A DNA stretch of 64,000 nt from Leucoraja ocellata (taxonomy: Eukaryota). A program made the translations under genes and the position numbers. Numbering within the stretch: position 1 is the stretch's first letter; every line of letters starts with the position of its first letter. The stretch lies in contig JAWMAR010000036.1 in assembly GCA_036785375.1 (NCBI GenBank), forward strand, positions 4,278,001 through 4,342,000, given 5' to 3'. This document shows, one piece after another, positions 5,212 to 64,000 of this stretch. Under the pieces are notes generated by a model. It was not told the origin of the DNA. It made no database searches and saw only the letters and a list, made by a program, of their open reading frames with translations.

Positions 5212-6090
5212 CAAGGAAAGCAACTGGAGGATCTCAATGGGTCAGGTAGCATCTGTGGAGAATTGTGGACAGTCAATGTTTTGGGTCAAGGCCCTTCATT
5301 GAGACTGGAAGAGCAGAAGGAAACTAGCCAGTAATAAATAACTGGGGGGAGAGGTGGGACAAGAGCTGGCAATGATAGGCGATACAGGTGAGGAGGGGGT
5401 GATTGGCTGAAAACAGTCAGGTGGGAAGGAAAGGATGGAGATAACAAGAGAGACTGGGAGGTTTTGTGGAAAACAAAAGGCAGCAGATTTTGGAAGCTAA
5501 TAGGTAAAAAAGGTGAAGAATGGAACTGATGAAGGATGATGGCAGTTGGGAACAACAGAAGTTGGAGAGGGGTGAGCAGTGGTGAAGAAGAGAGGGCAGG
5601 AAGAAGAGAAACTGAATGAAAGAGGGCTGGGAGGTGAGGTGGGAAGCAGGGTGTGTGCAAAAAGAGTATACAGGTGGAGAAGGAAAGGGTCAGAGAGGGT
5701 ATGAGTTCCCTGAAATTTGAGATTTCATTGTTTATGCTATTGGGTTGTTGACTACCCAGAAAGAATATGAGGTCCTGTTCCTTTACTTTGCATTTGGTCT
5801 CACCCTGGAGAAGGCTGAGGTCAAACAGGTCAGTGTGGGAATGGGTAAGGGAGTTAAATGATTGGCAACCGGGGGATTCGGATGACTGTGTTTAATCTCT
5901 CCGTGTTGAGGAAGTCACATGGAGAGGACTGAATGCAATAGACACGGTTGGAGAAGATGCAGGTGAATCTCTGCCTCACTTGGAGGGGCTGTTTAGATCC
6001 CTGGATGGTGGTAAAGGGGGGAGAAGTGTTATATCTCCTACGATTGCTGGGAAAAGTGCCAGGGAAGGGGGAGGGATGGGTGTGGATGGA
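5212..6090 (-). mobile_element. Penelope-like element 3' part (GIY-YIG remnant plus hammerhead-like tail)
   Basis: ORF 5854-6144 reads PGTFPSNRRR...FTTIQGSKQPLQVRQRFTCIFSNRVYCIQ, the Penelope linker and GIY-YIG start. The tail at 5270-5307 reads CAGTC-TCAATGA-AGGGCCTTGACCC-AAAACATT-GACTG on the minus strand. Confidence 0.8.
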
Positions 6091-6267
6091 AGAGCAAATC
6101 AGGATACCTATAGTTCCAAATGATATTATAGTTGGAAATAACATAATTACTCAGTTCAGTTAAAACTAAATTGTCAAAATAAATGTTTATATTAATTAAA
6201 TGCTAATTAAGAGAGCAATGGATCTTTAACATTCAGTTTTGAGAAGCCAAATGCTGCAATGGGGATG

Positions 6268-6395
6268 TTTAAGAAGGAACTGCAGATGCTGGAAAATTGA
6301 AGGTCTGAAGAAGGGTTTCAGCCCGAAACGTTGCCTATTTCCTTCGTTCCATAGATGCTGCTGCACCCGCTGAGTTTCTCCAGCATTTTTGTGTA
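6268..6395. mobile_element. Short Penelope-tail-derived element with internal inversion and 15-bp TSD
   Basis: Exact direct repeat gctgcaatggggatg at 6253-6267 and 6396-6410; contains CTGAAGA-A-GGGTTTCAGCCC-GAAACGTT at 6305-6332. Confidence 0.85.
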
Positions 6396-8377
6396 GCTGC
6401 AATGGGGATGACTGGTTAAAGCCAAGTGATTGTTCTGCTCATCCACCAATCTAACATAATGGCTATCATGCCATGTTTAGGACTGGAGTTCTGTGGGTCA
6501 ACAAAGCATGTGACTAATCTGCAACTCATCTGTGGCTTAGGAAAGGAGGAGAGACCAAGCCCAGCGGGGAGAAGAAGAAATGGATAGAAACAGAAAATAA
6601 AACAAATTGTGGTGATTTTGTCCAATATGGACCTTCTTTAAACGAACAATTGTTGATTCTTATTACTTATGTTCAATTACTTTCAACCACACCAGATCTT
6701 AATTTAAAAATAATTCCCTTCTAATAGTGATTTGTGGTTAATAAAGGAAGAAAATGTTTGACTGACTTTGGCGTAAACTCATCACAATTAACAAGATGGA
6801 AATTCTGAGTCATTGTGGCCTGTATATGAAAATATTCATTAACCTGGGATTGAATACTGTAATGCTCTTGTCAAGGGCCATTAGGAAAGTATCAAACTAA
6901 GTGAGCTTGCAACAAATATAGCTGGACAAATGCAAATCTTCATAGTCATACAGTGTTAAACACAGTGCAGTAAGGAAGGAACACTCCTCAATGATGAGGA
7001 AATTGCAGTGCTGACTATTCATTTGCTATAATTACGCCTTGAAATGTTCTATTTCAGGTTTACATAACGGTAGTGAGCACACTTGTACAACATAATTTTC
7101 AACTAGGAAACAGGTGTGTGTGTATGGTGATATGAAGGAGTGTGGGGGGGGTGAGAAGGGAGAAAGCACTTTACAGCATAAAAAAACAGGCATTTTGGTT
7201 TCATGCATTAGTACTCAGCTAATTGTAATAATTCTTTTTATAATCTTTATCACAAGTTTGGCAGTCAGTTTAAATGTTTCTACAGGCTAGTTACTCTGCT
7301 GATCAGAGCATAAAGGAAATCATGTGAAAGAAATTATATAGCAATTTAGTAATGACTTGGTCAGCTGTTCTTCATTTTGCTTCACTTTATTGCATTGGTT
7401 TATGAGGCTCAGACTCGGGTCAATTTTGCAAATAGTATCACTGCAGCCATGGTTATACTAAACTATGCAGAACTGTGTATGGAATCAGTGTAATTAACTA
7501 GGAAACAATAATATATTTAAAACAATTAATATGTGTTGTGATTTTCTATTGAATGCCTTAAACCACTTTTGAGGCTGGCTATTAAACATCATGTGCCAAC
7601 TGTAAGTCAATGTGATGGTTTGTTAAAGTGCCAACAATGCTGTCATCACCTCAAGTGCATAAACCACAGATCTGAAATCTTTGATAAAGTCTCAAACATA
7701 ATAAACAACTTTTTCCCCCCCTTAATGTTTATCAGATGGGCAGTTGAAGTTTTGTAAGATTTGATTAACTGATTATCCCTCCACTGAAAATAGAGACCTT
7801 GAGACAGAATTAACAATCTGTGGTTTGTGATTCAGTTTCTTGAAAGCCAACAATGCTGGAGGTACTGAATATTTTAAGGTTATTTCATCTGTCATACTCC
7901 ACATCTGAGCACGTCCTTCCTAATGTCCCCAGGGGCAGAGGAACTATGTGTATTCATCCAAAGTTGGATAAGGTCAAAAACTAAACATATTGAGTGGAAT
8001 AATTAGATTATTCCTTCATCCTTTAAGAGCAGAGTGTTAAATATAAGAAAATGTTGAGCTTGAAGTACCCAGTGGATATACACAGGTTTGGGCAAATAGC
8101 TTTGCTAATGGGCATTGTGTTCATTTTTCACACTCTATATCCAGAGAATGGGCAGGCTGGCTTTTTTAGAAACCCACAGATAATTCTGCCAGCCATAATG
8201 AGGCAGTATATCTTTTATATTTATGGCAATATATTCATCACTGGCATGGCATATCTTGATATGCTGTGTCCAGCTATAAGACATGACAAATATTTGTAAT
8301 GATGGAAAAAATTTAAAAATTGTCACCGTCAATCATAGTTGTCACTGAATTGCAGACTTAATATAGAATATATGGAT

Positions 8378-8656
8378 TTCAAGATGGCGGCAGATGAAGG
8401 AGAGGATCGGTGCTACCAGGGCAACGGGCCTTTAAGGCCAAGATAAGATTGTTTTCTTAAAAACTTTGGCACCAAAAACGTGGTGACTCTTTGTGTACTA
8501 CCTCGGTGAAGTCTACTATTACACTACAATTATTGTACTTTTGTACTTATCTATGATTCTGCTTATCTATTATATGATTTTACTAGATTGTATGCGAAAC
8601 AAAAAATGTCACCGTACATGGGTACATGTGACAATAAAGTATCATCATCATCATCA
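8378..8656 (+). mobile_element. Short non-autonomous retroelement with Rex1/L2-like tail
   Basis: Starts caagatggcggc and ends catgtgacaataaagta(tca)n; the tail resembles that of the Rex1/Babar element at 25355. Confidence 0.5.
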
Positions 8657-11600
8657 AAAGTCATACTACTTTTTGTGCGTTGGGCTCTTTCTCAGCATCA
8701 GCCCAATATTGCCCAATGAATACCATTGTGTGAGAACATTTAGACTGTGTAGCTGGCAATGCTTGAACGGATGGAATACTTCCAGTAAATCACTGGGGAA
8801 AAAACAGCATAATATGATCTGCAAAATTCATGTTTTGGCACATATTCTCAAGAATAGCTCTGTCAGATTAAAGCCATGCTACCAATGCCACTGATTTACA
8901 GGTTAAGAAATTCAGTAATCTCCTTCTCATTGTTAGTTCTCAGGATTTAAGAAATGATGTTGTGACGTTTGAAGCCATTTTGGTTGTCTCCCATTATTAT
9001 TAAACCAAACAGCGCATATATCGAGAACACTTATTTGTGGATTTCCTGTTTTTATTTTCAGCATTTTGTAGGGTGCTTGTCACAGATATGTTGAAAGCAC
9101 CATTGGAAAAAGCCACAGTGCACTGTTGCTTTTTGTTAAATGATTAAGATCTTATAATCATGTTTTTGAAGATGCATTACATGCAATGCTGTTAAAAGCA
9201 ATATAATGGACTAGACAGATGGTCACTGTACTGACTAACACCTGTGTGTATAAACTGCTAAGAGTCAAAAAATCATTGTGATTTCAAGAAAGCTAGAATG
9301 TAAACAAAGCTGGTTAAAGTAAATCAACCAGGACCCTCATATTCATAGGTGATGACAAACAGCAGCTGCCGAAAATTTGTAGGCAGTCGCATCCAACACA
9401 TTTTACTATAAAAGTGTAACGTTAAAACAGATCAGTTTTTGCTCTTCCCAGCTGCCCATGTTCCAATATTATTCTGTGCCATTATGGAATAAAATGCTTT
9501 TGTTTCTATTTATTCAGTTAACTTTGTCAGTGTACCTAAAGGTTCTTTATGTTTTGCTAAAAGATTAATGATATGTATTTTGGGGAGTAATTAAAATGTT
9601 ATGTACCTTTTTAGTTCTCCTATTCCTCGAGTCAATATCTGTCCTTCATCTCAATAGAAAGATTGTATGGTTAACATGAAGGATTCTTCTCCAGATGCCT
9701 CTGTGAATTCTTGGCTCACCGACAAGAAACTGTGTTTGAAGACTTGTTAGGCAGTTTTCCTGTTCAAAAAAGTTTGTACATGTTGGTAAAATGCATCCTC
9801 TAGTGGAAAATAAAATAATCGTGTCAGCAGAAAGCTAATTCAAGCCAAGTCTTTCCAGATATACTTGACTGGCGTTACCAGGCAATCTATATTTCTGACT
9901 TGCATTTTGGCAAACTTGACTGGACTAAAACAATTTATGGGACACAGATTTCTTTTTCAGTGAAACACAAGCAAAATTGAATTTAGCTTTAGATAGGTAA
10001 TTAAAATAACAAACTGAAAATGTTGAACTCGTAACGCAGATTTATAGGCCAAACAGTGCAAAGAGAGCTATTTTTATTCGTTCGTAAAATTGAAAATAAA
10101 GTTTGAATAGGTTTTTACGAGGCTAGTCAATAACTGATGGCCTTGCCAGCAATGGACACATCTCGAAAATGACTTAACAAAATTGCCCAAAATTTTTTGA
10201 GATTTACATTTAAGTTGCCAGAGTTATAATTTATTTATCCAGCTAATTTATTACTACTATTATATGAGGCCTGTAGTGTTTAGTTTAATTAAAATAAAGA
10301 CAAGTTCTGTACTAGTAGGATCTGGATTGTACTACTTTAATGTCATGTCAGATCTGCATGAATCGTGCACCACTATCAAGGCCTTCTCCTGACCTGAATT
10401 GGGCAATAAATGGAGAGGTCTGAGCTTGTCTCGTCGTGTTTATTCATTCAGTAGTCATTCAAATGGACTGCTTTAACCAGCAGTTTTGTATCCCTTATTG
10501 GTGTTACACTAACAGTTGGGAGTTCGCTTCTACCCAGTAGCCCCCGGCTCATTGGTTGTATGTGCATCTAATGCTTCAGTAGGAAAACCAACAACTGTAG
10601 GCATTCGGCAAAGATAAAGATTTATTGGTTAAGATGCATGGCAGGTCGAGCAACTGATGCTGAATCCCGCTAAATTAAAAGTAAACATTTCTCTATGAAG
10701 GATTGAATGTCCAAACAAACACTCTTTTACTTCTGTCCTTTATTCCCATTTTTAATGGGATGAGAACAGATAGACGGGACTTGAAAACAGGAAGAGATTC
10801 CAAGATGAGCTGTCGTGGGGCAATTATTCAATTCATGTTTCTTTTATTATATTCATATTGTTTGTTACATTTCAGTTTTAAGCAATTGAGCTGTGAGAGC
10901 AGGAATGCAAATAACCTGACAGCCAATATTATGTTTCACTTATTTCACTTACATTTTAAATTTGGAAATCAATGTCCCTGAAAAGAAGTTAATTCCTAAA
11001 CAAATGCTTGACCCATAAACACTGACTGTCCGCGGTTGGCCCTGGCCCACTGAGTTCCTCCAGCTGTTTTTTTTTGCTCTAGATTCCACCATCTGCAGAT
11101 GTTTGAGGCTCCAAAAGTCAAATGCTAACATCTACCACATTTGCCAATTGTTCAGACAACTGCCTGCTGCTAATGTACGCTGAGGTTTACGGTTAATGAG
11201 CTAAACGTCGCCAGCAGGTTCAAGGCATTATTTTGATCAATTGCCTATTAGCTACAAGTTATATCTTTTTTCCCGGGGGCAGGGTGAGTGGGGGGTGGTG
11301 ATTTCAAAATCTGTAAGAACTTTCAACAAACTTTATATGCCTTGGCACTTTAAAAAATATTCTCTCGTCTGTTTCCTATCCTTTTATCCCCTGTGGTTTT
11401 GTAGCTTAAAAGCTTGCAGGTAAGGTGCTACATTGCAAGTTATTACTGAGCTTTAATGATGTGATTGGCCCACACACAGGGCAATTATGTAATCAGCCTT
11501 AATTTTGGAGCCTAGTTTGAGCTTGTATAACGAATGGGAGGAAGGATTACTGTACAAATCAAGCCTACATTTTGCTGCTAATAAATTAGCAATGCCAAGA

Positions 11601-13505: not shown

Positions 13506-13590
13506 TCTCTCGACCCGAAAGTCACCCATTCCTTCTCTCCAGAGATACTGCCCGTGCCGCTGAGTTACTTCAGCTTTTTGTGTATATCTT
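13506..13590 (+). mobile_element. Penelope-tail-derived short element, truncated
   Basis: tctcgacccgaaagtcacccattccttctctccagagatactgcc...gctgagttacttcagc matches the other copies. Confidence 0.75.
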
Positions 13591-14288
13591 CCAAAATTAT
13601 TTCCCTGATATCAAAGCCTCCTAAGTGCAGTAATTTTGATTTTAAGTTTTTCACCTTTCTGTTCCTTTCTCCCCTCTGTTCAGTGAAATAGTGTTAATTA
13701 CTCCCTAGATCAGGAGTGTTTTGGAAAAAAACAGATGTGCTCTCTTAAAAATGATTTTTACACAATAAGGTTCCTTGCTGTAAGACTGAGAATCTGCAAG
13801 CAGAACGGATGCTCCATTTCTTGCACAGCACAGATGAGATGCCATTTTTAGGATAAGGTAGTAAGCCAAACTGTGTGTCGGTTTGCTTGGGTGAATGTAA
13901 AATATCTGGGACATCAATTTTCTGACTCGCTCAAGTGTTTGTTTATGTGTCATTACCAAGATTGTGTTACTTGTTTGTCACAAACAGGATTCCAATACTG
14001 GCATTGTCATGCATGCAAACTATCTGAAACTATTTTTGTTCTATGTACAACAAATAACATAGTTATGGCTGTTTGTTGGATATCTAACAATGTGAAGATA
14101 AATAGTAATGAAAGATGGTCTCTACAGAAATCTGCGCTCATTTTGTATGCTGATAGTAGAATTTCATTGTCATATTGACACTTTTAAATTGCGTGAATTT
14201 ATATGAACTCTCTGGTCAGAGCTATCCAGCTAGGTAAGGACTGAAGAGAATGGCGGGACATCATGAAGCAGATGGCACCACTCAACCC

Positions 14289-15414: not shown

Positions 15415-15735
15415 TTTCAGTGGGGAGAACGTCCGTGCAGACGGCTGTGGATGCCAAGTCATTGGATATTTTTTAATGCGGAGGTTGACAAATACCTGAT
15501 TGGTAAGAGTCTCAAGAGTTATGGGGAGAAGGCAGGATAATGGAGTTGAAGGGGAAACTTAGATCAGCCATAAATGAATGGTGGAGCAGACTGAAGAAGG
15601 GTCTCGACCCGAAACATCACCAATTCCTTCCCTCCATAGATGCTGCCTCACCCGCTGAGTTTCTCTAGCATTTTTTGTCCACCGATGGAGTAGACTCGAT
15701 GGGCCAAATGGCCTAACACTGCTCCTATCTTATGA
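15415..15735 (+). mobile_element. CR1 3' end interrupted by a Penelope-tail element (15591-15685)
   Basis: CR1 tail gatcagccat...gaatggtggagcagact / tggagtagactcgatgggccaaatggccta. The insert ctgaagaagggtctcgacccgaaac... is flanked by tggag(c/t)agact repeats at 15582-15592 and 15686-15696. Confidence 0.8.
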
Positions 15736-17139
15736 ACATGAATATTGCACACTATTGGCAGAGAGACAAAGCAGCACAGATTCCCTGCTGAGCATCTTCA
15801 TGGAAGTTTCTGCATGTGAATGAATTTCTAGGCCCAATATTATCTCAGGCACAGCAATGTCTGTACAGACTGAAGGCCAGGACCGAGGCTGAGACCAACA
15901 TTGTTCTGCAACCTGATGACAACCCCTCCTCCCACACGCACACCTCGGCTTGGTCATTTTGCTTCCTTCTCACTCAATCGTAACAGACTGTTGTCATTCA
16001 GGAAGTCAACTACCTTCACATTCATTGAAGTCCGCAATCATTCTTAATAACAACAGAGTGACAATTGGTAGGTGACTTCCACACCTGCATCAAGTGATGG
16101 AGGTGCTACTCACTTCATAAGGGATTAAATTATTTAAAAAGCACTTAATCCTGTGGATGCAGATGGATTGTGTCAGAATCCAGGAACTATTACAATAATT
16201 ATCGCAAACTCATAACCCATGTCTCTATGGCAATGATTTAAAGTAGATCTTCTAGTGAAAACAATGAAGCAAAATAATCAGCTGCAAAAAAAAATCTAAC
16301 TTGTTCACAAATGCTCAGAGGCAAAATATTTGATACATCTATTTGGGACAGATTTGAAGTTGGTAAGATTTCAATCAAAAATTAAACAAACATATGAATG
16401 CCTGTTAATACACCAACCACATCCTTTCACTAATATGTAAATATATATTTTTTTATTTTTGGCCAAGATGAATGAGAAATAGATTTTTTTTCCTCACAAA
16501 TAATTGCTTTTATAGATTTAATGATAGCAATTTATTAATAACATCAAAACTTACTATCACGTGAGCTTTATCATCAATGCATATAATCATCTTTAATCGA
16601 AAATAATCTGCAGGATTAATATTAATACATGAAAGAAATCAACTAGACAACTGTGGGATTCTCAAATTAAATAACATATACGGGAAATTCTTCATGATGG
16701 AAGTTCATTGACCTGAAATGTTAACTGCTTTTCTTTCTGTTCTCTGAACTACTATTTCCAGCATTTTTTTGTTTATATTTTAAGCATTCCAAAGCATGTT
16801 TCTTTCACATTTAACAAGACTTCTCTGACCGACTCCAGACTGGAAGCATTGAAACTTGGAAATAATTAAAGGAACAGACTACTCGTGCAGCGAGTTGTGT
16901 ATTGCATACTCCTACCCATCAAGAGCCTGATAATCTGGAAAGGCATAAAGCCAGATTTTATCAGCAAAGAATATTAGGCAGATTGGAGGGGAAAAAATGT
17001 TTTATCTGACTACTTTTGGTGACTAAAGCAAGTCAGTGATTCCTGCTTTGTTATTGAGTCAATGGACCATTGTGGGTTCCACATTTACTTGATTATTGTT
17101 GCATTCTGCATATCTTCCATCCATTGTCCTAAGCACTGT

Positions 17140-17274
17140 ATATATCTCTTGTTCCCCTTTCTCCTGACCCTCCGTCTGAAGAAGGGTCTCAATCTGAAAC
17201 GTCACCTCTTCCTTTTTTCCCCCAGAGCTGCTGCCTGACTCACTGAGTTACTCCAGTATTTTGTGTCTGTCTTC
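17140..17274 (+). mobile_element. Penelope-tail-derived short element
   Basis: gtctgaagaagggtctcaatctgaaacgtcacc...ctgagttactccagtattttgtgtct. Confidence 0.75.
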
Positions 17275-17763
17275 ATGCATGAAATTGTTGTGTTTATGAC
17301 AAGAAACGGGTTATTCGGAAGTAGTTTTACATTTCAATCATTTACTTTACAATAATTGAATACAAATTTTATTGAGGATGGTCAACATAAAATTGTGATT
17401 GCACATGATGTTACAATTTGCTGCTGAAGATATTCTCTCAGCAAATATTATGAAATATCTTCTGTTTTTAAACTCTAAGGTACCTCCAGCTGATTTTTTT
17501 GCTCTCTGTATTCACAAATAACAGTTGATAATTCAGTTAAAAAAAAATGTTTTTGGATTATTCTTACAATTCTGAAAAATTAGATTTATGAGAAAATGGC
17601 TTTGTACAGTGCAATAGAAACTTAAAAAGGGACCCTGAAATATATTTATTGTGACATGAACAGACTGAAACTTAGTCCATGCAATGGTAATGGCCAAATT
17701 ATTGAATTAATTGATTGGTTTATAATGTCACAGGCTCATTTTAGACATTTGAATTTGGATTGT

Positions 17764-17895
17764 GTAGGAAAGAACTGCAGATGCTGGTTTAAATTGAAGG
17801 TAGACAAAAAATGCTGGAGTAACTCAGCAGGACAGGCAGCATCTCCGGAGAGAAGGAATGGGTGACATTTCGGGTCGAGACCCTTCTTCAGACTG
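17764..17895 (-). mobile_element. Penelope-tail-derived short element with 11-bp TSD
   Basis: atttggattgt at 17753-17763 and 17896-17906; body gaactgcagatgctgg...tttcgggtcgagacccttcttcagactg. Confidence 0.85.
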
Positions 17896-19059
17896 ATTTG
17901 GATTGTTTGAATCAATTGCATTTGATTTAGTGGGATTTATTTTTCTTCCTCAGTCGGGCACATATAGGCAGAAAAGTTAAAGATCAAATATACTCTACTG
18001 TTTATGTGTGTCCATTGGGATATTTGAAATGGGAATATATGGAGTGGTCTGTGGTGCCTTAAATGTTACCCACCAATGTGGCTGTAGTTGTTTCAATAGT
18101 TTCCCTTGATTACATGTGGGAATATTGTTTTGAAAAAAAATGTTTCAGAGGATTGAATTTCTGAATGGTTTTCTATATAGGATATTTGAATGAAGTATTT
18201 GCTGATTGATTAACATTTCTATGTGGTTTTTCTAGTTTGTTATGTATAAATCTGACTCAATCGAGTAAGTAATAGATTAAACATTCATTAGCATTTTGTT
18301 TTTAAAATGCTGTTAATTTGAAGCAGCTCATGCATGTAAAATGTTTAGTGTTATTATATGTGGCAAGAATTGTCGTCCTCTTAATTAGTATCACATTTCA
18401 ATCCCGTGTTTTATTTGAGAACAATTTAATACAATTATTTTTTTTAAGAATCTGTCATTTACAACATATGATTATGAATATCCTATCATTGAGTAAAGCC
18501 TGCAACTGTAGGTAGAGTAAATGCTCATACCTTGGAATCCCCAGCTAAATATAAAACCAAAATTCCAATTCAATTGTAAGCCAAGCAAAGGTTTCCAAGT
18601 AATTTGTCATCATTACTTAAACAGCTCATTATTTATTGCATTCTCTTGGCCCAAAAGAGTTTTAATGGTAAATAATCTCTGAAAGTTTGGTAATGAATTT
18701 AGGATTCTTTCTCAGTGAGTTTTTGGACAAAGGAAGCCCTTGCATACATGAGTTATGGAAGACCTGATTTATTGAAATTCAACTTCAGGAATTTCTCCCA
18801 TAAATCTTTGAAAACATTTTCAAGGTGGGAAAGTTATGGAATAGGGTCGGCAGCTACTTGCTTCAAAAACAATTGTTCTTCAAAAATAACTGTTTGCAGG
18901 GGGAAATCATTAAAAGATTTACTTTAGAAACTGACATGGCAACCCCTTCTATTGACAATTGTAAAATACTTTATCAAACAATGTAACATCCATTAATACT
19001 TTAAGGTTATTGAAACTGGCCATTGGATGTGGGACATTCTAATTCAGAAATGGAACTCC

Positions 19060-20660
19060 CAATCAGTTTCCCTCTACTAACACTCTCCCTCTGCCTGACG
19101 GAACTTGTCCTCACCCTCAACAACTTCTCTTTTGACTCCGCTCACTTACTTCAAGTTAAATGTTTCGTCACGGTCATACTCGAGCTCGTATCATATGCCT
19201 GCCTTTTTGTTAGTTACGTTGAACAGTCTTTGTTCCAAATGTACATTGGTACCATCCCCCAACTCTTTCTCCACTACATTGATGACTGCATTGGGGCTGC
19301 CGCCTGCACCCGTGCTGAACTTGTTGATTTCATTAACTTTACCACTAATTTCCACTCTGCCCACAAATTCACGGACCAACTCTGGCATCTCTCTCCTCTT
19401 TCTTGATTTCTCTGTCTCCATCACAACTGTCATTGACTACAAATCCACCTACTCCCACAGTTATTGGACACACGTCCTCCCACCCTGCCTCTTGCATAGA
19501 TACCATCCCCTATTCTCAATCTCTCTGTCCCCAACTACATCTGCTTCCAAGATGAGCCTTTTCTTTCTCGGACATCTGAGATGTCTTCTTTCTATAGTAA
19601 ACGCGGTTTCCCTCCTGCTGTCGTAGTTGGATCACCTTAGCCGCATGTTATCTATATCCCTCCTCCGCCACCCAGACTGAACAAGGATAGAGTTTCCCTG
19701 GACCTGATCTTTTACCCCATCATTCTCAGCCATTTCCGGCACCTTCAACCTGATCCCCCCACCAGTCACGCCTTGCCATCCCCATCCCTTTCCACCTTCT
19801 GCATAGTATACTCCCTCCTCAACTCCTTGGTCCACTCATCCATTCCCTCCCAAGCCATCCCCTCTCCAGGTACTTTCCCCAGCAACCGGAGGAGATGGAA
19901 TGCCTATACCCTCTACCCCCTCCCATGTATCCATCCAGTGACATCGGCCGTCCTTCCAGGTGAGACAGAGGTAAATGTGCACATCCTTAGACCTCATCTA
20001 CTGCATTCAGTGTTCCCAATGTGGCCTCCTTTACATCAGCGAGACCCAGCGTAGACTATGTGACCCTTTTGCCGAACATTTGGGTCTGCAGAATTTCCCG
20101 GTTGCAAGCCATTTTCACTCCCCTTTCCATTCTCATAATGCCCTTGCTGTCCTCGGCCTCTTCTGTTGACAGAGTAAGGCCACATACAAACTAGAGAATA
20201 GCACCTCATATTCCGCTTTGATAGCTTACAACCTAATGGCATGGACATTGAAGTCTCCAATTTTTACAACCACCTCCCCCCCCCCCCCCCCCCCACTTTT
20301 GCCTCTTTTTCCTGTGCCCCCACCTGAATCCCTTCCCCCGCCCCCGACACCTCCCCCAGTCCAGTTCCATCTATGTTCCTTTCTCTGCCTTCACAATTCG
20401 TGTCTCTTCTATCTTTATCTCACACCTTTTGTCTTTTAATATCTGGCCTTTGTCCAATCCTCTACCAATCAAAAAAAACCCCATCACCTATTACTTGTTT
20501 GACTTTATCTCTCCCCAAACGTTTCCAGCTTTCCCCCCCCCCCCCCCCCCCCCCCCACCACCACCACAATTTGCATGAAGAATGGTCCCAACCTGAAATG
20601 TCGCCTTTCAATGGTCTCCATGGATACTGCCTGGCCCGCTGAGTTACTCCAGCACTTTTT
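19060..20660 (+). mobile_element. Penelope-like retroelement remnant (RT, GIY-YIG, hammerhead-like tail), frameshifted
   Basis: RT motifs LVLTLNNFSFD, SYACLFV and FLHYIDDCIG (ORF 19023-19406). GIY-YIG motif CTSLDLIYCIQCSQCGLLYISETQRRLCDPFAEHL (ORF 19975-20169). Tail atgaagaatggtcccaacctgaaatgtc...gctgagttactccagcac. Confidence 0.9.
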
Positions 20661-20739
20661 TAAAATCAGAAATCTTACATATCTGGGGACTGTTGATACC
20701 TTCTGTTACTCATAGTCTATTGAACAAAGTATATTGAGA

Positions 20740-20963
20740 GTTTAAGAGGGAACTGCAGATGCTGGAGAATCGAAGGTTACACAGAAAAGCTGGAGAAACT
20801 CAGCGGGTGCAGCAGCATCTATGGAGCGAAGGAAATAGGCAACGTTTCAGGCCGAAACCCTTCTTCAGACTGAAGAAGGGTTTCGGCCTGAAACGTTGCC
20901 TATTTCCTTCGCTCCATAGATGCTGCTGCACCCGCTGAGTTTCTCCAGCTTTTCTGTGTAACC
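20740..20963. mobile_element. Palindromic Penelope-tail element with 94-bp perfect arms and 15-bp TSD
   Basis: 20775-20868 is the exact reverse complement of 20870-20963; caaagtatattgaga at 20725-20739 and 20963-20977. Confidence 0.92.
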
Positions 20964-23900: not shown

Positions 23901-25137
23901 CTTGGTTTATCATCCTATTACCACTTGATTAAATCAAGGGGGTAATCACCAAATTTTGTTCTAATTGTTCATGTAAAAACTATATACCCTTTTTAAAACT
24001 AACTTTTTTAATCAAAAATAATTCAAAAATCTTGTGATCAATTCATCATGATTGTAATTAGTAAAAGCAGTCCATCATGTAGGGTTTCTGCATTTTCTTC
24101 AAAGCCAAATAGTTCCACAATATTGATGTATTGAATAATATTTCCTATAACCAATTAAAAGTGGTGTTTCCGTTTTTGTGATCAACCTTGCGTGCTTGCA
24201 CGGTTTATGTTTACTTTAAAAAAAAAGTTTCAACATGAACAACATGTGCTAATTTAGCTCAAATGGGAATTTTCCACAATTGTGTTAATGGTTGCTCTAA
24301 AATTAGCCCTGCATGCATTTAAACCCCGTTGAACATGAAGAAAGGAAGTCCATTAAATATCTACTCCTGATGTATTTCCTTTTTTTGATTTTTTTTTTTT
24401 TTTTTTTAATATTTACTTGTAATTTAATCATTACAGCTTTACTGCTATTTCGCGGGTAATTTTATCTGAAAATGTCAGTGCTTTTTTTGCTTTCCTTTCT
24501 CATTTGAGTTGACCTACCGTGCTTACTGGAGTGTAATAGTGACGCACTGTGTTGTGTGCTGCGTGAAACATAGACTGTAGCTTTTCTGTGAAGCTTGTGA
24601 AGGAATGCTGTAACATAAACAAAGAATGACACTGAATTGTATTTCTTCAATTGTTGCACCACGTTTTCAAGATCGCCGAGCAGTGAGATATCCTAATATG
24701 GAAGCATCGTGCAGTTCTTGGCGAGAAGCTTCACAGTTGTCCTAATTTGTCCTTGCAGAACTGCTGCTTGGGGAAACACAATGCCAATAGGAGCATCTGA
24801 GAGCAGTGAGAAGTAAATTGTGATCACCGTCTTGGGATTAATAGAGAAACCGGTGTAAGATTGAGGAAGTTTTAAATTATTTATTTCACTGTTATATTGC
24901 TGGCTACAGTCTCATTTGCAAATTTAAAGTGATGTCAGGATTCTGGGAATGGAGTCCTCTTCCCGGATATAGAAAACTGTATCAATGACTTAGTGAATGC
25001 GAGGTTGAAGGTCAATGCCAATAACACGTGAAGTAATAAAGTTTGCACAAGACTGGAGAAAACACAGGGTAAGTGAGGAAAGGCCCCAGTTTCATAAAAA
25101 TAAGCGGAACAGATCAGTAAATAATAACGTAATAACA

Positions 25138-44402: not shown

Positions 44403-44650
44403 TGGACCCATATGCTAATCCAGTAGCTTCTCAGCCAGTCTGGTGGGAACTATCGTGTTGAAGGCTGAACTGAAGTCTATGAACAGCATCCTCACATAGC
44501 CCCCCCTTCTGGCTGTCAAGATGAGAGAGAGAGCAGGGGGGCAGAACCTGGGAGACCGCATCATCCATGGATCTGTTCGGACGGTATGCGAATTGTAACG
44601 GGTCCATGTTGCGAGGGAGGATGGCGCAGATGTGTTTCTTCACCAGCCTC
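44403..44650 (-). mobile_element. Rex1/Babar-like RT fragment
   Basis: [18 protein letters not shown] (ORF 44431-44643); a shifted frame reads [18 protein letters not shown]. Confidence 0.85.
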
Positions 44651-45049
44651 TTAGTTCCTTCTTACATATTGCATTGTGAAGGTGGATTTCTCATTGTTTT
44701 GCTGCCAATAGATTCAATACAACTACGTTGCTTCTCCATCACTGCAGGGGGCAGTTTAGAGTCCAACATTTTGGTCAGGAGCTCACCCAGACCAGGTGGA
44801 TACAAAATATCCTTCTCTAAAGTACATAACTGGATCAGCTGATTTTTATAATGAACTGGCAACTTATTTTTGCTGAAGCCAACTTTCTATTTTTATGAGT
44901 TTATTTTTAGACGTACTGATGCAGATGCCACCCTTGACTTCACAAAATTGAGGCAGAGGCTACAGAAATAAAGTGTATGCTTTGAACCAGTAAAAGGAAC
45001 ACTGATTCAATTCTTCCAGCAACTGCAGTTCTTTCTTAAACAACTGATT

Positions 45050-45670
45050 CAATTCTGGTCACCACACTTTAGGAAGGATGTAAGAGCCCAAGAGAGAGTA
45101 CAGGGAAGATCTGCTAAAGATCTCGTTCCAGGGATGTGGGAGCTTCAACTCTGATGTTAACCTGGTAAAACTAGGCTTGTTCTCCATTGAAGAAGAGGGT
45201 ACAAGGAGATTTGATAGAGAATAAGAATATTACTGGGATAGAGATGGTAAAAAGAGTGAAATGCATTCCCTGCAGTGAATGCTGCAAGAACCAGAGATAC
45301 AAAACTAAAGTGTAGAGCAAAAAAAAAACCCAACATGGAGGTGAAGAGCAAGCTTCTAATTCTGAGTATTTAAGAAGGAACTGCAGATGCTGGAAAATCG
45401 AAGGTACACAAAAAAGCTGGAGAACCTCAGCGGGTGCAGCGGCATCTATGGAGCGAAGGAAATAGGCAACTTTTAGGGCTGAAACCCTTCTTCAGACTAA
45501 TTCTGAATAGTTCTGATATAGAACTTATTGCCTGGAATCTTGCTTCTCCAACGGGAATGAGTAAGCACTAGGAAGAAAATTAGTTCCAGGGCCACGGGGA
45601 ATGAGATGGGGATTGGATTCCTTTACAAAGAGCCACCATGAGCCAGATGGGCCAAATGTCCTTAACTATT
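45050..45670 (+). mobile_element. Old CR1 3' part (host of the 45369 insertion)
   Basis: caattctggtcaccacactttaggaaggatgt (QFWSPHFRKDV); ttgttctccattgaagaagagggtacaaggagatttgatagag. Confidence 0.7.
45369..45496 (-). mobile_element. Penelope-tail short element, single arm, 13-bp TSD
   Basis: ctaattctgagta (45356-45368) and ctaattctgaata (45497-45509); same subfamily as 6268 and 20740. Confidence 0.85.
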
Positions 45671-52342: not shown

Positions 52343-52653
52343 TAAATGATCCATTTTTAAGTATCAAAGAAAATTTCACGATGGTGACGACAGAGTAAGT
52401 CTGATAATGCAGATACATGTTGCTGTATAATGTTACATCAGACAAAGGGTTTAAATCAATTCTTAAAAGCACGAGGAATGGGTCTTACAAATAAATCAGT
52501 GCATGTTTCACTCAATGTCGCAGTTGGTGTAGATTCTTTGCTTTTGTATAACTAAAGTGATCATAACGAGGGATATATTTGATTGTATTATTGTTCTAAA
52601 TACCATGCTGCATTCCTAACTGTCATAACTGGTCAAACTTAAAAGCTGGATAC

Positions 52654-52776
52654 AAGGAACTGCAGATGCTAGTTTATTTTAAAAATGACACAAAGTGTTG
52701 GATTAACTCAGCAGGTCAGGCAGTATCTCTGGTGAACTTGGATAGGTGATGTTTCGGGTCGGGTTCTTTCTTCAGA
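52654..52776 (-). mobile_element. Penelope-tail-derived short element
   Basis: aaggaactgcagatgctag...gtgatgtttcgggtcgggttctttcttcaga. Confidence 0.8.
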
Positions 52777-55361
52777 AGCTATTTTAAAGCTATTTACTCA
52801 TTAGCAAATGTACCTTCATTATGAAGTATATAATATTTGACCTTTATTATGTTTATCTACTGATATAGTTTAATTAATTATTAAAATATATTCTACAGTT
52901 TCATGAATTCTTCAGTTTTGTGTAAAACTTAAGTGCATGGTAAGTCTTTTCTATGATATGCAACTGAAAATAATTGTGCAATAGTTTTCAGGCCATTGGT
53001 GATTTTGTTAATCTCATGTAAGGAAGATGTGGGCCAGAGGTGGTCAGCTATTATGCAGCTGGGTAAGGGGTCTAAACTCAACCATGGTATGTACTGCTTA
53101 ATGCTATCTGGAAATCTCTCATGAATTCACATGTGAGAACATCCAGTGAGGATAGGATTACATTTTGAGCTGTGAAGCCCTGCAGAGACCATTATGCCAC
53201 ATGCATTCACTTATAAAGCATTTATTTATACACATGACGTGGATGCATTGGCAAAACCAGCATTTGTTGCCCATCTCATTGACTTCAATGGCACCGAATG
53301 TGAAGAGGTGAGTATGACTAAGCTGGGAATCTTACATGCAATTAGCACCAAGGAACAAAGAAGAACTTCTCTTTTGTGGGGAATAAGTTGGATTTCTCAT
53401 CATTCACACAAGGCATCTACTTCCAAAATCTATCAGGATTCATCCTTTGATTCATTTCACCTAGGTTCCCCTGCACCAGTTCCTCTTGGATAGCTATCTC
53501 CACATTGCACTCAGTAGTATTTATTTGTCCTGTTCCAGCTAGGTAACCTGGCCTTTTCAAGGCCGGGACCACAACACAGTTGACAGCAGGGTTCTATTAG
53601 TCCGCACTTGCTCTATTTTATTAATGATGGGTCCCGCTATTCAATGCTGAAGGACTTTCCCATGTACTTAGAATCAAAACTGTCAATTGCCTTTAATATT
53701 TTATCTTCTTCCATTCCAGCTACATGGTATGCCCATTTGATGTGTCTACTACACACTGTAGTTTAAAATGGGATTCTTTTGTCCCACTCGTGCACCATCT
53801 CGTTAGTGATGCAGCCCTGCTATTTGCCACTCAAGATCCTTCTCAAGTCCTTAGTATCAAAGCTGTCAATCTATAATATTCAGTTAGAGTCCAATTCCCT
53901 GTTCCACATTTCCCCACCAACAGTAGCACAGTCGTGGAAAAATCACAATGTGTTTCCGTCTGTAATACAAAATAAACAACCATTTGAAGACTACAATTTA
54001 AGGATATAGTGATAACACCTCCCATCGTCGCAAATGGACAAATAAAAAATCTAATTATAAAAAGCTAACTTTTCTCTTTAAGAATAGATTTTATTTCCTC
54101 GGTGCAATCTTGTTTCTAATTGTTACAGTGCAGCTTTTTTAAATTCACGTATTTTATTTGTGTTTTGCTCAATTTCTTTCAGTTTCATGTATAACATACA
54201 ATTTCACACGCCAACAAATTTAGAGCTTGCCAAACCTAAAGGGTTCAGAATGCTAGTGCACACTTTCAATAATTTTTCTTTTACTTGCCAACTCAATGCA
54301 AAAGGTCAGGGAAATCTACACTAAGCATTAAACCCCAAACCACATACCGAGAGCTTTCCTCCCAGGTAAACATTACTAGTTTTTGCTGACTCTATTGGTG
54401 AATGCAGGGACTTTACATTTACTCTGTGCGTTACAAGTTATTTTTCCATGTTGAATATCTAATTTTCTCAGAAACCTATGACTGAATTTGCCATTTATAG
54501 TGATTAAAATGAGTTGTTCAGTCAGAGAAATAGATATTGTTTATTAAAATTGCTTAGTTCTTGTGAGAAATACAATTTCAGTTATATTCGTAGAATTTTA
54601 CCAGGAGCCACTTATGAAGACATCAACAACTGCTTTTGTCAAGAAGAAAGAATAATTACTAGTATTCAAATGTGCTATGAGATTAAGTTTATTGGAGATT
54701 TTAAATTGAGGTTTTGGCAATTTGAATTATATTCCGATCGCTATGATTTCGGGCACACTTTTCGGATAAAACCCTCTATCCCAATATATTGAGCTACGAA
54801 TGAGCACATTTTGCAGAATCTCATTATTAGTTATAATAGATTAGAATAATTACAGTTAGAATAATTTATTAGTTATAATCTATTAGTTATAATAGATTAA
54901 AGGTCAAAACGTTTCTTGTTGGGCTGCAGATCTTTCATCAAAAAATGATCAAGTTTTGAGTTGTATTTCTGCTCATTTTGTTTTCATATGAAGGAATTTG
55001 ATGCCATTTTTATACAGTGTTCTCCAGCCAAGAGGCATTGCACCTGGACTAATGCTTATAGTGTATGTATCATTACCTAATGTGTTCACATTTGTCCAAA
55101 GTCATGTGTCTTATGACCTTTCCTCTGTGTGGCAAAATCTTGACCTTCCAAAGAGGAACCCAAGAACAAGAACTTGCCGATCTTGCATCTTCAGTATGCT
55201 GACAAAACAGCTACATAGAAAGGGAAAAAGGGAAAAAGAAAACTCTAGCTGTTAGCTAGAGTTCAAAGGTAGAATAGTGACAGATTATAAAGCACAAATA
55301 AGGATGGTAGATGGACAAATGAAATGCTAAGATATCTCAAGACTCTCTGGATGTTAACCCT

Positions 55362-55462
55362 TTCAGTCTGAAGAAGGGTCTCGACCTGAAACATCTGCCA
55401 TTCCTCCTCTACTGAGATGCTACCTGTCTCCCAGAGTTACTCCAGCATTTTGTGTCTATCTC
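55362..55462 (+). mobile_element. Penelope-tail-derived short element
   Basis: cagtctgaagaagggtctcgacctgaaacatc...gagttactccagcattttgtgtctatc. Confidence 0.8.
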
Positions 55463-55549
55463 TGTGAGTTAAACCCGAATACTGACAGATGTGAGAAACT
55501 TTCAATATGCAATTTTACCACATGCAATCTTACTATATGCAATTTCTGT

Positions 55550-56168: not shown

Positions 56169-56185
56169 AACTATTCCTTGAGATT

Positions 56186-58465: not shown

Positions 58466-61082
58466 TATATGCATGTATGTATATATGTATGTATATGTGT
58501 GTGTGTACTTCCAAGTAATGCCACTGTAAGGGTTCAAGGTTTTCAAAAATTATCCTTGAATAACACACAGACAAATCTTCACAAAGCAACAAGTAATCAT
58601 TTTGTGGCTCCAGTCCTTCCTCATTTTAAAATGCAGAATGTTAAACTTTTTTTCTCTGCAGCATTTATTTCTAGCTAACAATATTTTCTCTTTGGGTAAT
58701 TTGTGAGCACCGGCTACTTCAGGAGTGGCAATTTGATAGCTGCAGAGCAGGATAATGTATGCTGTGGCCACTGAAAGCAGGAAATGCTTGTCCTCGTTAA
58801 TATGAGGTTTTGCATCTCACTAACTATTATTTCAAAATGACTATGTATGGTAATAATAAATCAACCACATGGCTGTAATTTGCTGGAAAAACAGAAAAAG
58901 GGGATTTAAAGATTCTTGTCCCTTTCAAGGTAATAGCATGAAACTGGCTCAAATAAGATAGAATGCATGAAATAAGGATACCCCTCAACATCGGTCTGGC
59001 CCCTGCAGTAATTTCTCGCTTCAGTGTGCCATCTATTTGTTCAGCTCAGTACAACAGAATTTGTTCAAAACTTCTGGATGGGAAAGTATGAAAATCACAC
59101 TTGGATGAAGGACAAGCTTAAATAAACCCGACTCAGTGTCCATTTGAACACCCGTTATTACCAAGGTAAAATGAGGATGCTATTTTAAAATTATGTGCTT
59201 CATGTAACCCATTTGTAAGTTTAATTTAGGTTACAAATTCATCATGCACATGAAGGGTGAGTTTAAATACAGTATACTCGGTGCCAACTCAAATGGGTTT
59301 TTTTTAACCAATGAAAAGTAGGGATATTATTTTAAAAGGACAGTCATTGAATACAACACATTTGTATGGTCAGAATATATGTTGTAGCTTTTCACAAATT
59401 TGACAACATATAAATGATCTTGTATCATTACATCAAAATGCCATGATTTAGTAAAAGCTAGATCGGACAGAACATGAAAACTTTGACTTGTCCACTGATA
59501 TTTGACCGTTTTCTTTGGCCTGAAAGCCTTTATTTCAATAAAGAGTTTCACTGCTTTTAGCTCAAAGGTTTCAAACATTATTTGCCATTCCTCTGGCATT
59601 TGTTGGAAATGGTTAATGTCCCGAGAATTCCGGTGTGTGTATTTTTCTGATGGGTTGACTGGCTGTAGAAAAATCACCATGTGACTCGAACAGCACTGTA
59701 GAATGAAACCCAAATTAACTTCAGCACCTTGGGGAGATATCAGAGGGTCTTCAGCATTACATGCTGTACTGACAAGCACCACTTAAGCCAGCCTAGGATT
59801 CCCAAACAAGTATTTAATCTCCTCATTAAAGATATATGAAGCTGGAAATCGATGTGCACATCAACCATTCTATTGCTGGTTAGAATCTTTTTTTTTCTGG
59901 TCTAACTTATTGCACCTCTCTAACCTTAGAGATTTTGTTTGGGATGGAGGTTTATGGCATTTCTGGAATGTATTTTCAAAGTATAGCAATTGCACTGAAG
60001 ATATTTTCTTCGACATTGAGCCTATGAAAAAGTATCTGATGCATTAGTTCATATGTTTTTTAAAGATACTACTGGAGCTGTCTTTTGAACCATTACTTCC
60101 CTGTAAATACCGACAAATTATTTTCATTTCATAGTAAAATATATCAATATGATTTTAAGATTCATGTCGACTGATCTTTAATACTTTTTGGTGGTTCTTT
60201 GTACAATTTAACATTTTGTCTCCACTTTAAGAAGTAAGTATGAGCTTGCCTGGGCATTATTTTCCCACAAACAGTGTCTGTCTCTATAAGCTATTTTTAA
60301 TATAATCACAATGGAGATGCCTCATTCCTGGGACATACTTTATTTGCCATCTTAAGTCCCTGCACTGTCTTGATGAATTTACACAGTACATCACCCTTGG
60401 TTGTTGCCCCAGGCATGAAACAACTTCTAAATTAGTACAGGGCTATGTTTACCTTATGGACATCTTGTAGAATGCGAAAAAACTGTAAACTGAATGGCCT
60501 TGACGTTAGGACTGAGTCCCACCAGTTGGAGCTTGTTAGGATTTGCAGGAAAGGATAGTTTTCTGAACTGCAATATTATCTTCTCCTCGGAAATGTGATT
60601 GGCATTGGGGGTCGAGGGAAATTGTGAACATTGTAAACGAAGACTGTTTCTGGAACATAATATACAAGTGATCATTAGGAATGGACGTTTGAATTTCCAT
60701 AGGGGAATTGAAAGTTCCAATGAGCAAGAATAACTTTACTTTTGAGATGCCCTTTGCCCTTTCAAAAGCAACAGTGCAGTTTGCTCAGCATGCTTTGTTT
60801 TCAGACATCCAACTTGATGGCAACTTTTAGAATTATATTCCCTCAATAATATTTTTACTTCCTGATGTTTACTCAATACGTGGATGGATTACAGGTTCAT
60901 AAAAGCTCTTGTCCCTGAATATCTTGGGGGTTATTCATGTGAGATTGTTGGCAGATCTTCTAACTGAACAATACCACTGCAAGGTCTGATCTAGTCCTTA
61001 CCCAGCCTCTATACATCTGCATTCTTAAACCTCATGGAGTGACCAGCACCTGAACACATGGACAATCTCCCTTTTCCTTAAA

Positions 61083-61176
61083 TGTGAAGAAGGGAACTGC
61101 AGGTGCTGGTTTATACCAAAGATAGACACAAAGTGCTGGAGTAACTGCTGCGCTCCTCCAGCATCTTGTGTCTATC
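61083..61176. mobile_element. Fold-back Penelope-tail element with 21-bp arms
   Basis: gatagacacaaagtgctggag (61121-41) and ctccagcatcttgtgtctatc (61156-76); imperfect flanking repeats cccttttcctta / ccctttccctta. Confidence 0.7.
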
Positions 61177-62297: not shown

Positions 62298-62639
62298 CTT
62301 TTTGTTATTGTCCTGTGGGCCGAGATACAGTGAAAAGCTTTTGATTATATATTATCCAGTCTGATATTATATATGAATACATTCAACTCAAACTCATTCA
62401 TTCATGCATTAATTCATCCATTCATACACGTCAACAGATAGTACACAGAGCAAAATACCAGAGTGCAGTGTTGGAGCATTTCAGTTACAGAGAAAGTGCA
62501 GATTATAAAAGGTGCTAGGCCACAATGAGACAGGTTGGATGATTGGGACTACATCCTAGTGAGGCATCAAGATGTTGGAGTAAATATTGCAGAGGACCTA
62601 GGCATGTTGTTAAGTTGTCTAATGTGTGTGCAGCATACA

Positions 62640-63315
62640 AAGGACTATGGAATAGAGAGACAACCCCCTCCCCCTCCACCCCCCCCTCCCCCCCCCCCCC
62701 CCTCCTCCCAAGGGTACTTCTTTCAGTGTTCACAATGTGATCTCCTAGATGTTGGGGTACTAAACCCAGATGAGGTGACCATTTTATGGAGCGCATGCAG
62801 GAGGAGCCTGAGCTTCCCATTTCCTACAACTTCCATTCCCGCATCCCATTCTCAGTCTGGCCTGCCTCTCTGTGGCCTCCTGATATCTTGGGCCTTGCAA
62901 GCTATTCAAAGAACATTTTATCTTCCATCAGTGCTGATTGGAGCCTCGGAGATTATGGAGTTCGCCAACTTTTACTCATTCGTCCTTTTTTACAGTATCA
63001 CAACTGGCCATTTCTGCCTGTTATCATTTTGGCTTAGATTTTTCTTAGACTAGCCTGCTGGGTACGACCACAGATACATCATGAGCAGCACATTATGCAG
63101 ACCGAGATGATTAATATGATTTTATCTACCACACAGTCTTCTCCCCTCAGAGATGATCACTCTGTTCTATTAATCCCACCCCAACCTTCTCTGCCTCCCA
63201 AAAAATAATTTATTTTCTCTCTTTCCTAGTTATGAAATGTTAAATGTTTCACTTTTCATAGATGCTACCTGAATTGCTGAGTTTATTTCAGATTTCTAGC
63301 ATCTGCAGTTTTTAA
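62640..63315 (+). mobile_element. Decayed Penelope GIY-YIG end plus tail
   Basis: FQCSQCDLLDVG (compare IQCSQCGLLYISET at about 20000); ends catagatgctacctgaattgctgag...ctagcatctgcagtt. Confidence 0.6.
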
Positions 63316-63451
63316 ATATTTTACCCTGCTTATTCACAGTGCTGTATTGGAGAGGTACCTGGCTAGAAGCCATTTATTTCCTCTTGGAGGCAGGGAAACA
63401 TAATGCTACTACCTTCCAGTCAGTAATGAGATGAAGGGGCAGGATTACAAT

Positions 63452-63624
63452 CTTCGAAAAATCATTTTAGACTGGAGTAATTCAGTAGGTTAGGGAGCAT
63501 CTCTGGATAACATGGTTAGGGGAAGTTTCATGTCAGGACCCTTCTACGGACTGATTTAGTTGAGTTATTCCAGCATTTTGTGTCTATCCTTGGTAAACCA
63601 GCATCTACAGTTCCTTGTTCCTAT
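63452..63624. mobile_element. Inverted two-arm Penelope-tail element with 11-bp TSD
   Basis: aggattacaat at 63441-63451 and 63625-63635; a minus arm ending cccttctacggactga is followed by a plus arm ending ccagcatctacagttcctt. Confidence 0.7.
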
Positions 63625-64000
63625 AGGATTACAATTTAGCTTGCTTTGTTCGTTGGGAAATTGGAATCACTGGAAAAGCAAATGAGTCTTAGTTGGTTAT
63701 GAATCATCACAGGAGGACCAAGAAATGGAATAATACATTCAATGTTCCATTGCACTACAGAAGCAAATATCCCTAAGCTGAGGACCTTGATCGAGATGAA
63801 GAGATCCATTTTTTGCTACAAACTCTGATGGTCTGGAATATGAAGCTTGAAAGGGTGATAGAAGCAAAAGGTATCTAAAAGATACTAAGAAGCACCCAGG
63901 TAGAATGGTTAACCCAGACCACCCAGGGTAAATAGTGTCCATTGCATTAATGCAAAATTGTACAATCTAGGCATGGACATTAAATCTATTTAATGTACTG

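Follow-up and report, generated by a model that had tools for sequence, protein, structure and literature searches.

Short dispersed repeats in a Leucoraja ocellata contig as probable solo pseudo-LTR copies of Penelope-like elements with a minimal hammerhead motif

Penelope-like elements (PLEs) of metazoans carry minimal type I hammerhead motifs in their terminal repeats, which are recognized by a CUGANGA strand, an extra nucleotide before stem II, a G10.1-C11.1 pair, a GAAA strand, a palindromic 15.2-16.2 segment, and the lack of a loop III (Cervera and de la Pena 2014, PMC4209133). Helix I of these motifs comprises 4 to 5 bp, or 2 bp in D. virilis, and thousands of dispersed single copies were described as "probably related to truncated PLEs"; no shark or skate is named in the searched portions of that paper and its supplement table. 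We analyzed a 64,000-nucleotide stretch of the Leucoraja ocellata genome (GenBank assembly GCA_036785375.1, contig JAWMAR010000036.1, positions 4,278,001 to 4,342,000 of the forward strand; 39% GC), hereafter the window, which contains a dense family of short repeats with these hammerhead traits. The repeats are probably solo copies of the pseudo-long terminal repeat (pseudo-LTR, or pLTR) of what are likely Neptune-type PLEs, with or without a short tail, and would carry the hammerhead already known from such elements.

The insertion products of PLEs have been described in several systems. Endonuclease-containing (EN+) PLEs of the Neptune clade encode a reverse transcriptase (RT) with C-terminal GIY-YIG and CCHH motifs, and their copies show 5′ truncation, an inverted copy, and a tail of 30 to 40 bp at one end (Craig et al. 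2021, PMC8557442). Solo copies are known for the Penelope pLTRs of Adineta vaga, which bear palindromes both at their 5′ ends and where inverted copies meet and have target site duplications (TSDs) of 8 to 10 bp (Arkhipova et al. 2013, PMC3846280); PMC8969392 is a further source on such PLE traits. In Poseidon of Anolis carolinensis (PAc), insertion proceeds from RNA that has not been cleaved, and the tail is linked to two sites at which the RT starts internally (Frangieh et al. 2024, PMC11167929). The window family resembles each of these in part. It shares domain order, truncation, inverted copies, and the one-ended tail with Neptune-clade elements. With PAc it shares the pLTR hammerhead, two 3′ ends that give rise to the tail, an apparently uncut template, and the lack, among the rows listed, of RNA ends at the cut site, although Poseidon belongs to another clade and has no zinc finger in its linker. 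Solo copies, junction palindromes, and short TSDs are found as in A. vaga, but the palindrome is 9 nt here rather than 18 to 38 bp, and copy number is very high here and very low there. Non-LTR retrozymes are tandem arrays with one hammerhead per unit (PMC7229834; bioRxiv 10.64898/2026.07.22.740005); they likewise have a type I hammerhead and an origin in PLE pLTRs, but they are longer and cleave efficiently, whereas the window repeats are dispersed monomers or head-to-head pairs of 90 to 130 nt whose ends lie outside the ribozyme.

A profile built from 11 window copies (nhmmer) matched 30 pieces of the window at E<1 and 26 at E<0.01, with the 11 seeds among them. There was one match in the reversed window (E=0.54), and a motif from the repeat body was found 14 times in the window and 0 times in 100 shuffles. 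When grouped, the pieces correspond to about 21 insertion loci, or about one per 3 kb, consistent with the initial annotation, which had described a dense family of about 20 copies at that spacing. Insert lengths span 28 bp to 1.6 kb. The family is also highly repeated genome-wide, because an 871-bp stretch with two copies, which includes the copy at 17764..17895 and served as the read-mapping reference, attracted 227,065 and 261,669 contig records in two DNA-like runs from the same or related species, where neither record counts nor summed contig depth are copy numbers. The mapping results below are those of the top-listed rows, with some counts incomplete. Family motifs had no matches in viral contigs, metagenome contigs, or prokaryote genomes, so that the covariation analysis drew on window copies, and no account of this family in sharks or skates was found in the literature, as judged by titles and the starts of abstracts; so abundant a repeat may well already be curated in Dfam or Repbase. 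A decayed candidate at 16690-16795, possibly a very old family member with GTTAAC after GAAA, scored only with a profile that contained it, was not significant with an independent one, and was excluded from all counts.

Two longer remnants connect the repeats to a coding element. The first, at 19053..20665 (+), is 5′ truncated and extends from the C-terminal half of an RT, with a YIDD motif, through a decayed zinc finger-like linker and a GIY-YIG-type segment into a C-rich 3′ untranslated region (UTR) and a terminal repeat with a decayed hammerhead (20575-20660); it has no tail and a weak 8-bp TSD (p=0.03). The second, at 5212..6093 (−), is also 5′ truncated and retains the linker, the GIY-YIG segment, the 3′ UTR, and an old hammerhead end of subfamily C (see below). 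Both terminate in the short-repeat unit, as the initial annotation had noted for its spans of 19060-20660 and 5212-6090. Nine peptide pieces from the window, all decayed, matched 0 Pfam families, and the piece at 5857-6138 had no homologue at E≤0.001, so that its identity comes from tblastn. The peptide at 19041-19403 has 41 relatives, and those that are named belong to rays, skates, and sharks. In tblastn searches, the proteins of these relatives cover 19053-20264 (+) and 5676-6093 (−); shark and ray PLE proteins match the first remnant down to an E of 1e-57, and relative P0013 matches the second at 2.5e-15. P0013 and a further relative, P0040, score RVT_1 and GIY-YIG in Pfam, and the order typical of EN+ PLEs, an RT followed by a C-terminal GIY-YIG endonuclease, is recovered in the window through these tblastn alignments. 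A CX2-5CxxC linker marks Neptune elements, although Nematis has the motif too (PMC8557442). In P0013, a close relative from a shark, the linker reads CX4CxxC, and both window remnants have the homologous linker with mutated cysteines; the linker of P0013 suggests that the parent is likely a Neptune-clade PLE.

The repeats fall into three sequence groups. In the tree, group A (support 100/99; 4 arms from 3 insertions) contains short copies only, group C (support 90/93) joins one long and one short copy, and group B has long and short members without forming a resolved clade. Loose ends at 17896 bear a common pyrimidine-rich upstream sequence, which indicates that subfamily B has further long copies; the short copies in the window share no upstream sequence, except at inversions and where windows overlap. 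The presence of long and short copies in the same groups, B and C, supports the solo pseudo-LTR reading.

The insertions display the set of features by which EN+ PLE copies are recognized, namely, an optional tail with two 3′ ends, 5′ truncation, head-to-head copies, and short TSDs. A tail follows the unit in 11 of the 26 arms and is present on one arm only in inverted pairs. In both the DNA-like and the RNA runs, 3′ loose ends peak at 17761 and at 17801/17808, 40 to 47 nt apart. Head-to-head pairs occur at 6268, 20740, 61081, and 63452. TSDs of 10 to 15 bp were detected at 6 of 21 boundary pairs (p≤0.006) and weaker ones at three more (p=0.03), including the 1.6-kb remnant, while 12 of the pairs had none; no convincing TSD was found for the copies at 17176 and 5212. 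The initial annotation had credited the short units with TSDs of their own. Duplications are indeed present, but they also flank an insertion that consists of a tail only and, weakly, the 1.6-kb remnant, and their presence on short, tail-only, and long inserts again supports the solo pseudo-LTR reading.

The remnants that end in the short unit, the shark and ray relatives, the two 3′ ends, the TSDs, the inversions, and the range of insert lengths together make solo pLTR copies the probable origin of the family. In this scheme, the unit would be a pLTR with or without a tail of 35 to 45 nt, inserted from uncut RNA by the RT and GIY-YIG endonuclease of the parent. The endonuclease would nick the target, and the RT would start inside the RNA at the end of the repeat or of the tail, by analogy with Anolis Poseidon (PMC11167929). 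The RT would then either fall off early or continue to the TCAG-T-CTGA palindrome that immediately precedes the hammerhead. This fixed point is most likely where a transcript initiated in the pLTR has its 5′ end, and there the product would be joined to the target or would fold back to yield a head-to-head pair. The hammerhead would be inherited from the parent and, once dispersed, decay neutrally; in subfamilies A and B, where it is predicted to misfold as naked RNA, cleavage would require a partner RNA and, probably, the protein of the element.

Several observations weigh against this interpretation. In 14 of the 26 arms, the copy starts 0 to 5 nt upstream of C3, within a 6-nt zone at the TCAG-T-CTGA palindrome, a clustering that departs from a uniform distribution over 100 to 200 nt (binomial p<1e-10, with ends placed by eye and one junction shared by two arms). 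Random truncation alone does not explain this pattern, which calls for a defined RNA end or stop. Short copies outnumber long ones by about 6 to 1, subfamily A has no long partner in the window, clade B is not resolved in the tree, and the 64-kb window contains neither an intact parent element nor a full-length copy of the pLTR-ORF-pLTR type. In addition, retention in the hammerhead core slightly exceeds that in the non-CpG body (142/149 versus 448/507; p=0.013, with rows that are not independent), which fits constraint in the source elements and does not date it.

The mapped data refine the picture of the 5′ boundary. Of the remaining arms, three extend farther upstream and nine start farther downstream, one of them near the cut site. 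The top loose ends among contigs lie at −2 and −3 (17893/17894) and have random flanks (1,145 and 1,173 records in run X1; agreement, 0.31 to 0.32), and the hot spot is seen in the contigs of two related runs; no such hot spot at the hammerhead start is described for Poseidon in the portions of PMC11167929 covered. Loose ends at −5, by comparison, carry the common pyrimidine-rich upstream sequence, with 1,646 contig records (agreement, 0.38) and 5,923 reads in RNA run X22 (agreement, 0.63). No loose end fell at the cut site (17863/4) among the top rows listed, the table of begin/end pile-ups was empty, and no RNA end or joint at the cut site was seen among the listed rows, a weak test given two fragmented poly(A)-type libraries. 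A template processed by the ribozyme would start after GUH, so the copies appear to derive from uncut RNA.

The boundary coincides with the TCAG-T-CTGA palindrome, with a motif resembling the initiator (Inr) consensus, and with a pyrimidine tract that ends in CAG. Sequence does not distinguish a transcript end from fold-back at the palindrome or from blockage at a splice acceptor. No spliced-exon consensus was present among the 12 RNA loose-end rows listed. A reading of the GAAACGTC box as a downstream promoter element (DPE)-like motif was rejected, since manual comparison places it 3 nt off the register of the RGACGTGY element. In Penelope of D. virilis, an intron ends at helix I (PMC4209133) and the start site lies farther upstream (PMC2377424).

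The fixed 5′ start, in the arms and in the contigs alike, is also the chief argument for a second and rather unlikely reading, in which the unit of about 130 nt would be a separately amplifying, PLE-dependent family similar to a short interspersed nuclear element (SINE), with its own Inr-like start (TCAGTCT) and its own RT site, re-mobilized in trans. A fuller version of this idea, to which we give equally guarded credence, describes a self-propagating unit without an RNA polymerase III (Pol III) head, very abundant in rays and skates, with its own initiator 5′ of the hammerhead, an end set by internal RT start, and a hammerhead silenced by a hairpin with the bases that follow the cut site until an element protein refolds the RNA. 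Subfamily A, young and represented in the window by short copies only, points in the same direction; moreover, A. vaga pLTRs are sufficient in cis for trans-mobilization (PMC3846280), and nonautonomous PLEs such as MRC1 exist (PMC8557442). However, long and short copies belong to the same sequence groups, upstream PLE sequence is present among the top loose ends, and the TSDs are not specific to the unit. The Inr-like motif is expected by chance about 13 times per kb per strand. Nor is there a Pol III head: no tRNA was detected, an Rfam search found no tRNA, 7SL, or 5S head, and the A and B box motifs do not occur as a pair, the B box being absent from all 19 copies (0/19) and the only A box match lying in the flank of one copy. 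The SINE-like family proposed by the initial annotation is the less likely reading, and it is the shared 5′ start that keeps it under consideration.

The hammerhead motif bears on all of these readings. The consensus of 18 aligned arms has CUGANGA, an extra A after A9, a 4-bp stem II opened by G10.1-C11.1, GAAA, the palindromic ACGU (15.2-16.2), and C or U at the cut site. These are the published traits of minimal type I hammerheads at PLE ends, as had been recognized at the outset, and on their strength the motif in the short copies is a PLE hammerhead by descent. Stem II is shorter than the 7 to 8 bp of Schistosoma (PMC4209133). Subfamilies A and B have a stem I of only 2 bp. The 5302 copy, of subfamily C, has the 5-bp stem I previously reported (CAGTC/GACTG), and its register is correct, but its core carries four changes; in the 6305 copy, the junction with an inverted tail makes a stem I of 4 bp.

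Individual copies depart from this consensus. All 11 core bases are kept in 9 of the 15 arms that span the core and ACGT in 5 of the 15, and 6 of the 10 altered ACGT sites are CpG-type changes, as expected under neutral decay. Core, 4-bp stem II, and ACGT are retained together in 4 of the 15 arms (6305, 17176, 20868, and 34453), as well as in arm 20870, which lies outside the alignment. The statement that most copies retain the full motif is therefore true of the consensus but not of the copies, and three of the pieces cited for it (13506, 25138, and 61083) lack the CUGANGA strand. Similarly, subfamily B closes stem II with U-A and subfamily A does so with U-G, as claimed, but this is a one-sided change, and covariation in the hammerhead helices did not rise above shuffles (136/500 as high; 18 closely related window copies). 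Lengthening stem I and adding a downstream hairpin (14 pairs in all) gave a structure that 21/500 shuffles equaled, a level that relatedness alone can give, and RNAalifold returned no consensus pair on the gappy alignment. The Rfam search that had been suggested along with the covariation check was likewise negative, with no hammerhead up to E=5. Rfam matches to mir-722 at 20833-20905 (51 bits against a cutoff of 81) were set aside, as they only reflect a head-to-head palindrome.

Folding models, which omit tertiary contacts, give a stem II probability of ≤0.07 in 5 of 6 folded copies. The ACCC or GCCU that follows the cut site in A and B copies can take the place of the 3′ strand of stem II, which leaves the core strand buried. 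The predicted active dimer lies 16 to 31 kcal/mol above the minimum free energy (MFE) dimer in four copies with a stem I of ≤2 bp, 7 to 11 kcal/mol above it for 6305, and 3.5 kcal/mol above it for 5302. Cleavage of A and B copies as naked RNA is accordingly predicted to be unlikely. An isolated 39-mer from 6299-6340, where the junction stem I is 4 bp, has the hammerhead shape as its MFE structure and is, by predicted fold, the best single candidate for self-cleavage.

These folds raise a third, improbable reading, in which the A/B motif would no longer be a ribozyme but a promoter, splice acceptor, or protein-binding element, and the hairpin between the core strand and the post-GUH bases would be the real fold. 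Besides the 2-bp stem I and the lack of an Rfam match, it can draw on the MFE predictions, which favor the alternative helix or similar folds, and on the helix itself (columns 19-25 with 42-50), which is paired in 76.8% of cells and in which positions 30 and 42 change together from A/A to G/G. Yet this helix also lacks significant covariation (25/500 shuffles as high), and the 11 core bases, the extra A, G10.1-C11.1, and ACGU, which are published traits of minimal hammerheads, are kept across both subfamilies. Moreover, a 2-bp helix I occurs in D. virilis Penelope as well (PMC4209133), and the Anolis hammerhead cuts only with protein (PMC11167929).

Head-to-tail joints of whole units (17893-17897 to 17761) were found in 11 to 28 contigs each and in 0 to 3 RNA reads each, about 2% of the more than 1,000 loose ends at those places, and the window has no tandem array of units with complete hammerheads. 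A non-LTR retrozyme, in which tandem units would be cut by the hammerhead into monomers or circles and then reverse transcribed, could account for these joints and has been reported from PLE pLTRs in one chondrichthyan (bioRxiv 10.64898/2026.07.22.740005), but the rarity of the joints and of their RNA reads, the missing array, copy ends upstream of CUGA instead of at the GUH cut site, a stem I of 2 bp against 6 bp in canonical type I motifs (PMC4209133), and a commonest RNA tandem joint that lacks CUGANGA and stem II make it the least probable of the readings, and the retrozyme-like spread suggested by the initial annotation is largely refuted for the window copies. In that joint, the most frequent one listed for RNA, a unit of about 66 nt (17812-17871) that starts at G12 is repeated head to tail; the joint was seen in 289 reads from 119 starts in run X24 and in 36 reads in run X22, with 3,078 loose-end reads at 17812 in X24 and 0 contigs among the DNA-like rows listed, where counts are incomplete. 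It is probably a transcribed minisatellite derived from a PLE, and since its units keep ACGUC and the downstream strand, they could serve as a substrate in trans. The single-cell reads of X22 lie mostly opposite to the element strand at 17120-17209 and 17750-17899 (about 2.5 to 20 to 1), with a bias below 2 to 1 at 17240-17299; internal oligo-dT priming or antisense transcription may be responsible.

The short copies can be described by subfamily. In subfamily A, the copy at 6268..6395 (+) joins an inverted tail to a forward unit with an intact core, a 15-bp TSD, and the 4-bp junction stem I. The head-to-head pair at 20740..20962 has a tail on one arm only, a 15-bp TSD, and 94-nt arms that are 100% complementary around a center at 20869, one base before C3 and just 5′ of CUGA. 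The solo unit at 45366..45498 (−) has a tail, a 10-bp TSD, and a mutated G12. Subfamily C is represented by a short copy at 11009..11118 (+), truncated inside stem II, with a tail and a weak 8-bp TSD. A solo unit at 15587..15685 (+) is intermediate between A and B and has no tail and a weak 11-bp TSD with one mismatch.

Subfamily B is the most varied. The copy at 13506..13593 (+) is truncated inside stem II and has no tail. The piece initially placed at 17140 and within 90 to 220 bp is longer: it keeps upstream pyrimidine-rich 3′ UTR and an intact core at 17060..17275 (+; 5′ limit approximate), and multicopy depth reaches the edge of the mapped stretch at 17090. The reference copy, 17764..17895 (−), is a solo unit with a tail, an 11-bp TSD, and C3 at 17891. 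Tailed copies also include 25135..25236 (−), which is truncated near the cut site and lacks the core strand, and the solo units at 34450..34582 (+; core intact) and 52648..52778 (−; stem II broken); the solo unit at 55364..55465 (+) has no tail. A further copy, 28925..29657 (−), is split at a T(T)AA site by a 630-bp insertion (~28957-29588) whose terminal inverted repeats are 52 nt long (83%) and which we take to resemble a Kolobok-type miniature inverted-repeat transposable element (MITE).

The other loci are fragments or compound insertions. A short 3′ fragment at 38286..38332 (+) has neither core nor tail, and an old, internally deleted piece at 63234..63312 (+) has a tail. The complex insertion at 44176..44404 combines an inverted unit (44176-44273, −) with a partial tandem of two damaged hammerhead heads (44299-44334 and 44339-44404, +). 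The tail-only insertion, 28 bp at 45015..45042 (+), was read by eye; it has a 14-bp TSD (45001-45014/45043-45056) and nhmmer E values of 0.21 and 0.063. At 61081..61176, a small inverted insertion without a core has a tail on one arm and a 12-bp TSD with one mismatch, and the head-to-head pair at 63452..63624 consists of a unit on the minus strand and a truncated unit with a tail on the plus strand, flanked by an 11-bp TSD.

The window also holds sequences outside the family. An open frame of 178 amino acids at 25527-26063 (−) resembles, by eye, the C-terminal part of a long interspersed nuclear element (LINE) RT. A near-perfect 64-bp palindrome at 2453-2516 (32-nt arms, 88%, no spacer) is possibly a MITE. 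Minisatellites with periods of 30, 47, 36, and 37 at 56059-56507 and 57660-57923 adjoin assembly gaps at 57288-57654, and a GC-rich segment at 12175-12723, in which several open frames overlap and an (AGC)9 run occurs, is possibly the first exon of a host gene.

The findings show that a known pattern, minimal hammerheads dispersed as the ends of PLEs, also holds in cartilaginous fishes, where the density is high. The very numerous copies, with their sharp 5′ boundary at the start of the hammerhead, their two 3′ ends, and their inversion junctions, form a natural data set on PLE insertion, which could test whether the ribozyme, the transcription start, or fold-back fixes the 5′ end. Should subfamily A prove to lack a coding partner, vertebrates would offer a clear example of a SINE-like element mobilized by PLEs.

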